Positions 6,179 through 10,424 of a DNA stretch of 39,605 nucleotides are shown here, piece by piece. This DNA comes from an uncultured Candidatus Saccharibacteria bacterium. GTDB taxonomy: Bacteria; Patescibacteriota; Minisyncoccia; JACQLN01; CAZPCT01. The stretch spans positions 1 to 39,605 of the forward strand of contig CAZRHU010000003.1 in the NCBI GenBank assembly GCA_964600085.1, in the 5' to 3' direction. Under the pieces are notes generated by a model, which worked only from the letters and a program-made list of their open reading frames with translations, ran no database searches and was not told the origin of the DNA. Within the stretch, counting starts at the first letter, position 1, and every line of letters begins with the position of its first letter. The position numbers were made by a program, and so were the translations under genes.

Positions 6179-6252
6179 TGGCTGCCGGGCCAGGGCTCGA
6201 ACCTGGATTCCATGGACCAAAACCATGTGTCCTACCATTAGACGACCCGGCA
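6179..6252 (-). tRNA. tRNA-Gln (anticodon UUG) with encoded CCA
   Basis: The reverse complement TGCCGGGTCGTCTAATGGTAGGACACATGGTTTTGGTCCATGGAATCCAGGTTCGAGCCCTGGCCCGGCAGCCA folds by hand into a full cloverleaf. It has a 7-bp acceptor stem with U1-A72, discriminator G, anticodon loop UUUUGGU and T-loop TTCGAGC. Confidence 0.93.
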
Positions 6253-6340
6253 ATGTTTAAAGTTTATTGAGGATAGTTAACTTATCCTTATAAGTCATAA
6301 CATCCTACCATTAGCCTGCCCGGCCAGGGACGACCCGGCA
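6253..6340 (-). mobile_element. 88-nt miniature (internally deleted) copy of the GIY-YIG element, abutting tRNA nucleotide 1
   Basis: It consists of the 3' 37 nt and the 5' 51 nt of the full unit joined together. By eye it is identical to 6636-6723. Confidence 0.8.
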
Positions 6341-6635
6341 ATGTTTAAAGTTTATTGAGGATAGTTAACTTATCCTTTGATCCTTTGTAGCTTTTTAAAT
6401 ACTTTTCTCTTTCTCGTGCTTTAACTTTTGAATCAAAAGTTTCAATATAGACTATTTCAAATGGTATGCGATGTTTTGTGGATTTAACCAATCCTTTATT
6501 ATGATATTCTAAACGTTTAATAACATTCTTAGACATACCTGTATAATATCTATTATCTTTTTTGCTTCTTAAAATATAAACAAAATAAGTCATAACATCC
6601 TACCATTAGCCTGCCCGGCCAGGGACGACCCGGCA
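6341..6635 (-). mobile_element. Full 295-nt GIY-YIG element unit (pseudo-tRNA head, ORF, TAAACAT tail)
   Basis: Its ends are the same as those of the two 88-nt units. The length difference is 207 nt, i.e. 69 codons. Confidence 0.75.
6345..6593 (-). CDS. Small GIY-YIG (URI-domain, COG2827-like) nuclease family protein
   Basis: The 82-aa protein starts MTYFVYILRSKKDNRYYTGMS, giving the GIY and YIG equivalents. It also has the RLEYHN block and a conserved Glu region EREKYLK. Confidence 0.85.
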   Translation of the reverse strand: MTYFVYILRSKKDNRYYTGMSKNVIKRLEYHNKGLVKSTKHRIPFEIVYIETFDSKVKAREREKYLKSYKGSKDKLTILNKL

Positions 6636-6723
6636 ATGTTTAAAGTTTATTGAGGATAGTTAACTTATCCTTATAAGTCATAACATCCTACCATTAGCCT
6701 GCCCGGCCAGGGACGACCCGGCA
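6636..6723 (-). mobile_element. Second 88-nt miniature copy of the GIY-YIG element
   Basis: Same sequence as 6253-6340 by eye. It is followed at 6724-6730 by ATGTTTA, which equals the first 7 nt of a unit. Confidence 0.8.
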
Positions 6724-7988: not shown

Positions 7989-10424
7989 TTATAATTTGAA
8001 TTGTTTTTTATCTTCCCTATTGTCTTCTATTTTTTTTCTTTCTTCTCTTTTTCTAACTAGCTCTTCTCTAACCAACTCTCTTTCTTTACCATACTTTGTT
8101 CGTGATAATCCTCTAACTATATTAGCCGTCTCGGGATTTGGCTTGTGAGGCGAGTAGAGCTTTATATTAAATGGTTGAGCTGTCTGACCCTTAAATATCA
8201 TCTTCACATACGCGTGAAAGTTGTCTAAATTTATAAGGTCGTGAGCTCCAAAGAGAGGTTCTAAATACTGAGACAGAAATTCGGCATCTTCTTCACCAAT
8301 CCTCATTATAGCCATTGTTCCAATGTTGCCAAAAACGGCTTTGGATATTTCTTCTGGCAATTGTCCTATGAATTGGTGGGCTAAGATTAAATTTAAGCGA
8401 TACTTTCTAGCTTCTGATAAGATGGTAGCTGCTGATGAGGTGGTGAAGTTTTGAAACTCATCCATATATAGATAAAAATCTCTCCGTTCTTCTTGGGGAG
8501 TATCTCCCCTTGAAAAAGAAGCCATAGCTAGTTTTCCAGCCACTATTAGGCCTAGTAGGCTCATATTAGCTTCACCCAATTTTCCTTTTGATAGATTAAC
8601 TAAAAGTATTTTACCTTCATCCATAACTCTTCTAAAATTGATAGAACTTTTTGATTGACCTACTATAGGTCTCATAAAGTCATTAGATATAAAAGCATTA
8701 AACTTAGAGGTTATATAAGGAACCATATTAGCTAAAGAGGCCTCACCGCCGGCTTTTTCGGCTTCTTTTTCCCAAAAGTCCTTGACGACGGGGTTTTCGG
8801 TTTGCGACAACAAAGATCTTCTAAAGTTTTTATCAGCTAAAACCCTCGGAACGTCCATTAGGGTATAGCCTCTTTCCGGATAATCCATTAACAATAAAAG
8901 GGCGTTACGGGTGTACTGTTCAAACAGTGGCCCCCCGGTGGCTTTTAGATCATATAACTTATTAAATATATTTATAAGTTCATCAATTATAAAAGTTTTT
9001 TGTTCTGGATGCTGGGGGTTGTACTCTAACATATTAAGACCAAATGGTTTTTCTAAATCTGTGGGATCAAAAAGAACTACATCTTCCCACCTCTCTTTAG
9101 GAATAAGACCTAAAATTGACTCTGTTAGATCGCCGTGAGGATCTATAACACACAGACCTGCTCCTCTATCCACGTCTTGGTGAATAAGGCGCTGTAACAG
9201 GCCGGTCTTTCCCGTTCCGGTCTGTCCTATCACATACAGGTGACGCCTTCTATCTGTTTTAGCTAGACGAACCTCTGTTTCTCTTCCTCTATATTTGTTG
9301 ACTCCTAAAGAAATTCCTTCGCTCATTCCCCACGGGGCGGGAGCAGATCTGGCTTTAAGCCACCTCACCCCAGGAAGCGACGAGCCCGACAGAGGAAGGT
9401 GAAAAACACTGGCCAACTCTTCAGTGGATAAAACCGCTTTCTCTTTTTTATCAAACAATCGAAAGCTATATTCATAAATTATCTTTTCCTTCTTCTCTTC
9501 ATCTTCGGCAAAATAGTTTAAATTAGGTGATGAAAATTGGACAAAAGCACTTTCTATTTCATTTAAAATTGCTTTTGACCTTGCCTCACTGGGACTAGAA
9601 ACAGCTAATCTAATATTGACTTCAAAATTATTTTTAGATACTTTTGATTTAATAGCCTCTAAAATTTCTTCGTCTTGATAAGGCGTTTCGCCTTCTTTTT
9701 TTTCTTCTACCCTGTTTCCTAACTTTATTTTTGATGTCTTTTCTAAGGCCTCTTCAAAAGTTTTTCCCCTCTTTATTTCCTTAATCACTTTTTTAGCTTT
9801 AGATCCCCACCCCTTTTTTACGGGTCTCATAACAATCTGTAAACTAGCTCCCTCATCATTATTCAAGCTCGCCATAGCGGAAGCGATATTGTTTAGGGGA
9901 TCTACTCCTAAACTCTGATAGGTCTTTATGGGTAGTATTTCTGAACGAGAGGTGACGATATAAGAAGCGCTTGTTACTTGACCCGGCTCAAATATATCAT
10001 AATCTTCTACCGGCTCTACTACAGCTTCTGGAAAAATCGAATGAATTCCTTTTACTAGAGCGTCAGCGTATCTAGAAGGAGCAGAAGCGTAAAAAGCAAT
10101 CTTTCCTTTTATGTGGGTCATCTCCCATACAATATAGGGTGAGCCGTACTCCCACCTTTTCCAAAAACCACCGGGCTTTAGAGCTGAAAAAAGAGAATAG
10201 AGTTGCTCCATCGGCTCTATTCTCTCCCGAGCTTCTTTACTTTTTTCTTCCGGAGTTGTTTCTCTTGGTATTAAAATTAAAAAGAGCTCCATATCTAAAG
10301 AGCGCACAACTTCGCCCCTCTTTTTAATAGAACGAGAGAAGAGCCAGAAAATAATAAAGAGGACTATAAAAAGACCGGCTAGAAGACCAATGCTTATTAA
10401 AAAATTAGTGATTAGATTATCCAT
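7989..10424 (-). CDS. TraD/VirD4/TrwB-like (FtsK-HerA superfamily) P-loop ATPase with an N-terminal TM helix and a ~380-aa unknown domain
   Basis: Walker A VIGQTGTGKTG followed by CVIDPHGDL. Walker B is FYLYMDEFQNF, and the ARKYRLNLILAHQ block is typical of coupling-protein ATPases. Confidence 0.65.
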   Translation of the reverse strand: MDNLITNFLISIGLLAGLFIVLFIIFWLFSRSIKKRGEVVRSLDMELFLILIPRETTPEEKSKEARERIEPMEQLYSLFSALKPGGFWKRWEYGSPYIVWEMTHIKGKIAFYASAPSRYADALVKGIHSIFPEAVVEPVEDYDIFEPGQVTSASYIVTSRSEILPIKTYQSLGVDPLNNIASAMASLNNDEGASLQIVMRPVKKGWGSKAKKVIKEIKRGKTFEEALEKTSKIKLGNRVEEKKEGETPYQDEEILEAIKSKVSKNNFEVNIRLAVSSPSEARSKAILNEIESAFVQFSSPNLNYFAEDEEKKEKIIYEYSFRLFDKKEKAVLSTEELASVFHLPLSGSSLPGVRWLKARSAPAPWGMSEGISLGVNKYRGRETEVRLAKTDRRRHLYVIGQTGTGKTGLLQRLIHQDVDRGAGLCVIDPHGDLTESILGLIPKERWEDVVLFDPTDLEKPFGLNMLEYNPQHPEQKTFIIDELINIFNKLYDLKATGGPLFEQYTRNALLLLMDYPERGYTLMDVPRVLADKNFRRSLLSQTENPVVKDFWEKEAEKAGGEASLANMVPYITSKFNAFISNDFMRPIVGQSKSSINFRRVMDEGKILLVNLSKGKLGEANMSLLGLIVAGKLAMASFSRGDTPQEERRDFYLYMDEFQNFTTSSAATILSEARKYRLNLILAHQFIGQLPEEISKAVFGNIGTMAIMRIGEEDAEFLSQYLEPLFGAHDLINLDNFHAYVKMIFKGQTAQPFNIKLYSPHKPNPETANIVRGLSRTKYGKERELVREELVRKREERKKIEDNREDKKQFKL

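Follow-up and report, generated by a model that had tools for sequence, protein, structure and literature searches.

Upstream of an intact tRNA-Gln gene, a 39,605-nt stretch of DNA from an uncultured Candidatus Saccharibacteria bacterium (contig CAZRHU010000003.1, positions 1 to 39,605, here called the window) carries three interrupted copies of the 5' part of that same gene and, among them, an open reading frame (ORF) for a very small GIY-YIG nuclease. This raises the question of what kind of genetic unit the nuclease gene and the tRNA fragments form, and why the fragments are there. The arrangement is real and widespread, and it is best read, with a probability of roughly 0.6, as a homing-type selfish element nested at the 5' end of a tRNA gene, which duplicates the 5' end of its target such that the tRNA survives. 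The DNA proper to the element is a 15-nt GC-rich near-palindrome and an 82-aa GIY-YIG gene related to UPF0213 and SLX1, the rest of the 295-nt unit being tRNA sequence.

On the minus strand, positions 6723-6179 comprise an 88-nt unit, a 295-nt unit, another 88-nt unit and then the intact tRNA-Gln(UUG) (6252-6179; ARAGORN; Rfam RF00005, 57.9 bits), the presumed target gene at the downstream end of the array. Each unit begins with a 38-nt segment, here designated the head, in which TGCCGGGTCGT (tRNA nt 1-11) is followed by the 15-nt insert CCCTGGCCGGGCAGG and by CTAATGGTAGGA (tRNA nt 12-23). Unit B (6635-6341) is the complete element and consists of a head (6635-6598, insert at 6624-6610), a TGTT spacer, the nuclease ORF (6593-6345), which stops 4 nt short of the next head, and ACAT. 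Unit A (6723-6636; head 6723-6686, insert 6712-6698) and unit C (6340-6253; head 6340-6303, insert 6329-6315) are identical to each other and have an in-frame 207-nt deletion of the ORF; in unit C a 13-codon stub ORF (6298-6257) is left between TGTT and ACAT. The heptamer TAAACAT occupies the 7 nt 5' of the first head (6730-6724) and is repeated before each later head and before the tRNA; the stretch shared 5' of head and tRNA thus measures 7 nt in the window, and usually 0-3 nt in other loci. An earlier note, made from the letters of the window, had placed heads at 6303-6340, 6598-6635 and 6686-6723, with outer parts equal to tRNA-Gln nt 1-11 and 12-23, and had the D-arm remnant GGTAGGA end 4 nt (TGTT) before the ATG of the GIY-YIG gene; all of this was confirmed, the three heads being identical and the ATG lying at 6593.

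An assembly artefact was considered as the source of the repeats. Exact-protein look-ups of the neighbouring genes in the window matched one sample, whose contigs break at both ends of the array and give no alternative allele. Independent data were provided by the Logan contigs of SRR7048227, which terminate at window positions 6701 and 6270. These stops are k-mer branch points, where a tail-to-head junction begins to share 31-mers with the flank-to-head or the tail-to-tRNA junction; such points are to be expected only where the tail of one unit runs into a head with its insert, and a tandem array of at least two units is therefore present in the independent data. An artefact is ruled out on this ground for the existence of the array, not for the exact order of its units; the order short-full-short rests on the window's own assembly.

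The ORF encodes an 82-aa single-domain protein that matches PF01541 over residues 3-72 (E = 2.3e-15, 57.1 bits against a gathering cut-off of 22.6), so that no separate DNA-binding domain is present. Residues Y6, Y17, R27, H31 and E63 are invariant across 36 homologues; from what is known of I-TevI and UvrC we take them to be catalytic, and the nuclease is accordingly predicted to be intact. Of solved structures the UPF0213 proteins 1ZG2 and 1YWL come nearest to it, while the match to SLX1 is weak (E 0.3-0.8), and I-TevI/Seg-type homing enzymes are absent among its PDB matches; NCBIfam holds no family model for it. After removal of mis-called extensions the homologues measure 78-96 aa, and as they align from residue 1, the ATG at 6593 is the true start. 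In the window the gene caller chose an internal ATG, giving the 63-aa P0001. Gene callers mis-annotate such elements elsewhere too (P0012, P0016, P0020, P0021, P0029, P0030, P0035), the homologues being extended either N-terminally through the stop-free GC-rich head or C-terminally into the tRNA. Wrongly extended N-termini in the databases are translated heads, for example ...GDRPWPVKPVRGQ....

A scan of one genome per species yielded 80 loci with homologues (L001-L080), to which a scan with the insert pattern added 23 metagenome loci. The element type recurs across Patescibacteria (the candidate phyla radiation, CPR), with related architectures in Bacteroidota, Ignavibacteriota, Omnitrophota and Desulfobacterota. 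At about 45 of the 80 loci the stop codon of the ORF falls between 23 nt inside and 15 nt before an intact tRNA gene on the same strand (about 31 Gln; the others Glu, Ser, Pro, Ala and Ile), and at nearly all of these the 5' part of the locus's own tRNA is copied just upstream of the start codon and interrupted by a GC-rich insert. The interruption follows nt 11 for Gln and Glu, falls at nt 32/33 in L065 and lies in the anticodon loop for Ser, where it comprises two hairpins; downstream of it the tRNA homology ends variably, between nt 19 and nt 49.

Heads follow the tRNA beside which they lie. Over nt 1-20 they are 97% identical to their own tRNA in 35 non-redundant ORF-bearing loci (Gln, Glu, Ser), and the polymorphic D-loop positions (CTAATGG vs CTAACGG; CAAGTGG vs CAAGCGG) always agree between head and own tRNA. 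The derivation of the head from the tRNA, put forward in the earlier note, is thus borne out, and at the other tRNA species, which the same note had suggested comparing, each head likewise mimics its own neighbour, the Pro and Ala heads being recognised by eye only as the parser did not resolve them. For heads directly before an intact ORF, in the same 35 loci, mismatches amount to 2.9% per nt both in nt 1-11 and in nt 12-20; for ORF-less heads (9 loci) the values are 19% and 8.6%, that is, an 81-91% match. In arrays (L002, L004, L010) the older heads farther upstream have degenerate inserts or have lost them, and heads therefore decay after loss of the ORF. Most heads in L001-L080, and many intact tRNAs, have the dinucleotide AT at -2/-1 before nt 1; this AT might belong to the duplicated segment or be usual in tRNA leaders generally.

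The insert was examined for its origin. The earlier note had described it as a near-copy of the tRNA 3' strand, and its count of 13 equal positions out of 15 holds for the window (tRNA 6195-6181, CCCTGGCCCGGCAGC), where the 15-mer with at most two mismatches occurs four times against 0.01 expected. The exact 15-mer was found in 13 parsed heads (12 genome loci and the window) and in the 23 metagenome loci. The acceptor sequences beside it number over 15 (TGGGGGA, TGCGGGA, TGGGGAG, TGGAGTG and GGCCCTA among them), and it is shared by elements with no more than 55-66% protein identity. When the same or a related insert was compared with the own tRNA at 28 further Gln loci, the best match anywhere was 7-10 of 15, the value of 13 being reached in the window only. 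As the 15-mer stays constant beside diverse acceptors and matches so few positions elsewhere, its resemblance to the 3' strand in the window is a local coincidence of acceptor and T stems; it does not co-vary with the adjacent 3' strand across these 28 loci, and the description as a near-copy had to be given up. Judged by this comparison of sequences, the insert is owned by the element.

The same resemblance underlies an explanation by RNA processing, according to which the head, with a copied tRNA 3' strand as its insert, would take on an acceptor/T-like fold and be cut by RNase P or RNase Z to release the mRNA. Besides the 13 matching positions, the predicted fold of the window head is in its favour, since in the minimum-free-energy structure (-13.9 kcal/mol) nt 1-4 and 6-9 pair with the insert. 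This folding is no better than that of shuffled sequence, however (z = 0.12 for 38 nt and -1.6 for 26 nt), and the minihelix was rejected as a significant structure. The same insert also lies beside tRNAs that match it at 7-10 of 15 positions, and acceptor stems such as TGGGGGA, TGGGGAG and GGCCCTA cannot pair with it, so that an acceptor-like minihelix is not general: the one proposed in the earlier note stands as a predicted fold in the window, but it is usual for the base composition and in most relatives impossible. In long variants the insert pairs with itself rather than with nt 1-7, and an Rfam search at E up to 10 found the tRNA at 6182-6252 only and nothing tRNA-like in the heads, the head itself not being matched by the covariance model RF00005. 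Processing of this kind is extremely improbable, and the RNase P/Z handle found no support, since the minihelix on which it depends fails to generalise. The two other roles envisaged for the head, namely to serve as homology arm or, through the insert, to disable or immunise the copy, are viable but unproven.

The loci fetched, 436 kb in all, contain 57 occurrences of the insert family, always within tRNA 5' copies and never elsewhere, and the orientation of the insert is fixed relative to transcription. Given this confinement to heads, a dispersed repeat like a miniature inverted-repeat transposable element (MITE) or a repetitive extragenic palindrome (REP) was ruled out. The types of insert (a short one, two of 29-35 nt and a CCCTCGG... 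type) cluster by nuclease clade, not by D-arm sequence family or by position of the insert. In longer inserts a variable centre is flanked by common outer arms, CCCTGGCCG...CGGGCAGG, which one clade replaces by CCCTCGGCCGTAG...CTACGGGCGAGG. These inserts fold as hairpins in which a G·G mismatch is conserved and the outer stem shows a compensatory change from CCTG/CAGG to CCTCG/CGAGG. Since the length classes align unreliably, structure was judged from folds of single sequences and by direct comparison. The hairpins are significantly stable, with z between -3.3 and -6.5, in the Ser- and Glu-type inserts and in the Gln insert of CCCTCGG type, whereas the 15-nt insert alone gives no stable hairpin (z = 0.2).

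According to the favoured reading, that of a homing-type element, the nuclease would cut the DNA of the tRNA-Gln or tRNA-Glu gene in or near the D-arm, and repair would copy the element in. The downstream copy of the tRNA 5' part joins the remainder of the gene and keeps tRNA-Gln intact, and the upstream copy, the head, is the leftover fragment, split after nt 11 by the insert. Most likely the insert would serve as a lesion or hairpin module that prevents the leftover copy from behaving like a tRNA fragment, being attacked by the nuclease or forming a direct repeat with no interruption. Were the repeat uninterrupted, recombination across it would excise the element cleanly; with the insert in place such a deletion would yield a dead tRNA. 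The array may have come from repeated insertion at the regenerated target or from unequal (out-of-register) repair after re-cutting, and the 88-nt units would be ORF-deleted passengers spread by out-of-register repair.

Tandem heads or units were also found in L002, L004, L010, L032 and L029. Of the 23 metagenome heads, 10 have no ORF; they lie 31-155 nt from the tRNA, a gap indicating that the ORF was deleted in these loci. The array in L029 (Gracilibacteria, 1925-2780) contains one full unit, three identical 5'-truncated units and a tRNA-Gln. Its truncated units are joined at a CATTC microhomology, and the lesion in its heads is a replaced anticodon arm (CCCCGCCATGGCGGGG), not an insert in the D-arm.

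Expression of the element would also depend on the tRNA gene, with one RNA of head, ORF and tRNA made from the upstream region of the tRNA and the D-arm AGGA used as ribosome-binding site. From the first head to the start of the ORF a consensus scan disclosed nothing resembling a promoter, the minus-strand matches falling inside the ORF only, and we infer co-transcription of heads, ORF and tRNA. A terminator-like hairpin with a T run 3' of tRNA-Gln (minus strand, 6161-6148), detected by consensus scan only, is likely the end of this transcript. Among 44 ORF-bearing heads, 26 have the D-arm AGGA or AAGG 3-12 nt upstream of the start codon, and in several others it sits 1-2 nt away or is mutated. 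The Shine-Dalgarno sequence borrowed from the tRNA, another proposal of the earlier note, is therefore plausible and recurrent but not universal. At many loci (L009, L015, L018, L023, L028, L030, L035, L045, L047, L051, L061, L065, L066, L069 and L080) the stop codon of the ORF lies 10-23 nt deep in the tRNA gene. There, a cut by RNase P at the tRNA 5' end would leave an mRNA lacking its stop codon, and this could be a built-in limit on expression of the nuclease.

As to mobility, DNA similarity is limited to the element and the tRNA in most genome pairs. L025 and L026, two loci of a single metagenome-assembled genome (MAG), contain copies with 98% identity of a related architecture devoid of a tRNA, and this shows mobility within the GIY-YIG element family. 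There is no sign of a phage vector: the insert pattern had no match in viral contigs, and tblastn of phage records gave four weak matches only, at 34-42% identity.

Several observations weigh against a homing element, and the first concern its movement. The empty site expected for the window, with the upstream flank fused to the intact tRNA, had no exact match in metagenome contigs; remnant heads lacking the ORF and arrays do show turnover, but no clean pair of an empty and an occupied site was found. Moreover, in some genome pairs (L019/L023, L020/L022, L034/L076) element and flanks have diverged alike, which suggests long vertical residence over rapid cycles of homing. The same three pairs, together with the purifying selection acting on the ORF, are what would be expected of a non-mobile host gene, a small repair nuclease long co-transcribed with tRNA-Gln, of which the heads would be relics of one ancient duplication. 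Such a history is nevertheless very improbable, as related elements are found with several kinds of tRNA and within protein-coding genes, remnants without ORF are common and so are arrays, one MAG has near-identical copies at two of its loci, and tRNA homology gives way to the ORF at a variable point, between nt 19 and nt 49.

The remaining points against homing concern the enzyme and the head. Site-specific cleavage of the tRNA gene is doubtful for an 82-aa domain that, unlike I-TevI or the Seg enzymes, lacks a DNA-binding module. Simple immunity is an incomplete role for the insert, as nt 1-25 are unchanged in the intact tRNA downstream. Base-for-base conservation of the 15-mer exceeds the need of a mere lesion and points to a sequence-specific role outside the model, and this short form is the one unstable as a lone hairpin. 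Last, whatever the D-arm family, the nt 12-23 segment agrees with the local tRNA in every case, a pattern not expected from transfer of the element as a block from a donor genome.

These weak points keep alive the idea that the head is a binding or targeting module, its arms providing homology and its hairpin a handle for the enzyme, which is rather unlikely as such. Taken broadly, the nuclease would use the hairpin as a handle while the arms pair with a strand of the tRNA gene and the insert, bulging out as a branch, is cut by the SLX1-like, structure-specific enzyme, or else the same handle would be an operator by which the nuclease limits its own expression; in this wider form the proposal is still unlikely. 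The insert is conserved at every base, varies together with the nuclease clade and keeps a fixed orientation relative to transcription, both arms follow the local tRNA even across differing tRNA families, the enzyme is a bare catalytic domain closest to UPF0213, and the longer inserts are significantly stable hairpins with their G·G mismatch and compensatory stem change, all of which would suit such a module. But the adjacent intact tRNA would be targeted too, the short insert is barely a hairpin, and the arms may match the tRNA merely as recent duplicates or through gene conversion. Counting against it as well, we know of no precedent for a GIY-YIG enzyme guided by nucleic acid or by a heteroduplex. 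In its most specific version the head would be programmable: as RNA or single-stranded DNA it would pair with a strand of the tRNA gene, and the hairpin, bulging at nt 11/12, would mark the cut for the 82-aa enzyme. This version is improbable; if true, it would amount to homology-directed, structure-specific homing by a GIY-YIG enzyme with no DNA-binding domain.

The head might also resemble a phage attachment site (attP), the unit circularising with nt 1-11, insert and nt 12-23 as its attachment site and integrating by a crossover on one side of the insert. The unit is indeed circularly permutable, tandem units exist, and three loci of mirror-image organisation described below (L042, L058, L072) are exactly what a crossover on the other side of the insert would yield. 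On the other hand, the unit has no recombinase gene, homology arms of 11-14 nt are very short, and nt 12-23 would derive from the donor, yet always match the local tRNA. To our knowledge, GIY-YIG enzymes do not act as recombinases, a further count against this quite improbable mechanism.

As to known systems, the literature searched yielded no account of a GIY-YIG element nested at the 5' end of a tRNA, and Rfam has no family for such an arrangement. The nuclease shares with the UPF0213 proteins (1ZG2, 1YWL) and SLX1 a single catalytic domain of GIY-YIG/URI type. SLX1 acts with a partner protein on branched DNA; for the UPF0213 proteins we know of no function or mobile context, and of no link to tRNA genes for either. 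Integrative elements that target tRNA genes duplicate the 3' end of the tRNA and encode a tyrosine or serine recombinase. Like the present element, they insert at a tRNA gene and regenerate an intact tRNA by means of a duplicate segment that they carry; here, in contrast, the 5' part (nt 1-23) is duplicated and the sole gene is the 82-aa GIY-YIG ORF. Short GC-rich palindromic inserts in AT-rich genomes, often at the borders of mobile ORFs, are known as the GC clusters of yeast mitochondria and the double-hairpin elements of Allomyces. Those are dispersed in the genome, whereas the insert described here occurs only within the tRNA-derived head and in one orientation.

A closer parallel as regards the gene is SegB of phage T4, a free-standing GIY-YIG homing endonuclease encoded in a tRNA gene cluster and recognising a conserved tRNA-gene motif (PMC2330249). 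Both genes lie outside introns and among tRNA genes, and SegB targets a motif of these genes and spreads with flanking tRNA sequence, but it is a larger protein (cloned gene fragment of 687 bp, against 82 aa here) (PMC2330249). It further differs in recognising the T-arm, in having neither a partial tRNA duplication nor a conserved insert, and in being a phage gene and not a bacterial chromosomal one. In the present case the Rfam scan gave no intron family and the ORF adjoins the tRNA, so that the gene is free-standing; the element would thus work like a free-standing homing element, yet it stands outside the classical homing endonuclease family for want of a separate DNA-binding domain. As regards the duplication, partial copies of host genes lie beside homing-endonuclease genes in fungal mitochondria, for example C-terminal duplicates of atp6 and cob (PMC6279837). 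There, as here, the endonuclease gene carries or creates a partial duplicate of its target, with one copy functional and a fragment left; in fungi the duplicated part is the 3' end of a protein gene, in the present element it is a tRNA 5' end, and a conserved GC-rich insert lies in the leftover. The duplication of atp6 in Allomyces is a further fungal case.

If the homing reading is true, the element is among the smallest autonomous selfish elements known in bacteria, with about 265 nt of private DNA. It would persist in an essential gene by duplicating the 5' end, using the transcription of the tRNA and the AGGA of its D-arm, and tagging the fragment left behind with a GC-rich module that is strictly conserved; this raises the question of how an 82-aa catalytic domain locates its site. 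In practice, such elements give rise to mis-annotated gene starts and to fragmented assemblies at tRNA-Gln loci.

Other organisations were observed around nucleases of the same family. One has no tRNA (L025, L026, L027, L031, L033, L037, L041, L043, L044, L048, L049, L052, L053, L057, L059, L063, L067, L068, L071 and L079; approximately 1955-2260 in the loci), and its ORF is bracketed by an inverted repeat, with ACCCTGT(G/T)AAAT... 35-45 nt before the ATG and ...ACAGGGT(A/G)A forming the last codons and the stop. The borders of this organisation, to which L025 and L026 belong, are ACCCTGTGAAAT... on the left and ...ACAGGGTGA on the right. From flanks read by eye, several of these copies appear to split genes resembling that of the four-helix-bundle 23S intervening sequence (IVS) protein at an NIAEG-like motif, and just downstream of the L067 copy lies an ORF-less, hairpin-like mini copy.

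Elements of mirror-image organisation (L042, L058, L054, L075, L070 and L072, from Ignavibacteria, Bacteroidota and others; ORF at about 2001-2260, in L072 at 205-444) have an intact tRNA (Ser, Leu or Lys) ending just upstream of the ORF and a 3' fragment of the same tRNA downstream. In the fragment, GC-rich hairpin inserts occupy the anticodon loop (L042, L058, L072) or a T-loop-like context (L054, L075), and L070 has none. In L060 (Omnitrophota, 1900-2345) a 30-nt double-hairpin insert lies inside the anticodon both of the head and of the sole complete downstream tRNA-Ser(UGA), which ARAGORN does not call; this tRNA was either inactivated by gene conversion from the head, or its insert is removed from the RNA. 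The same principle is met at a protein-coding gene in L036 (Maribellus sp., 1900-2330): the first 41 nt of a gene starting MKKTILVTGGAGFI are duplicated, the truncated copy lying upstream, fused to a CCTGTGAAAT left end, and the intact gene downstream of the GIY-YIG ORF.

In the window itself, two genes upstream of the array, an ORF of 811 aa (7989-10424, minus strand) has weak matches to DUF8128, DUF87 and a TrwB-like ATPase according to the Pfam marks on a Logan contig.

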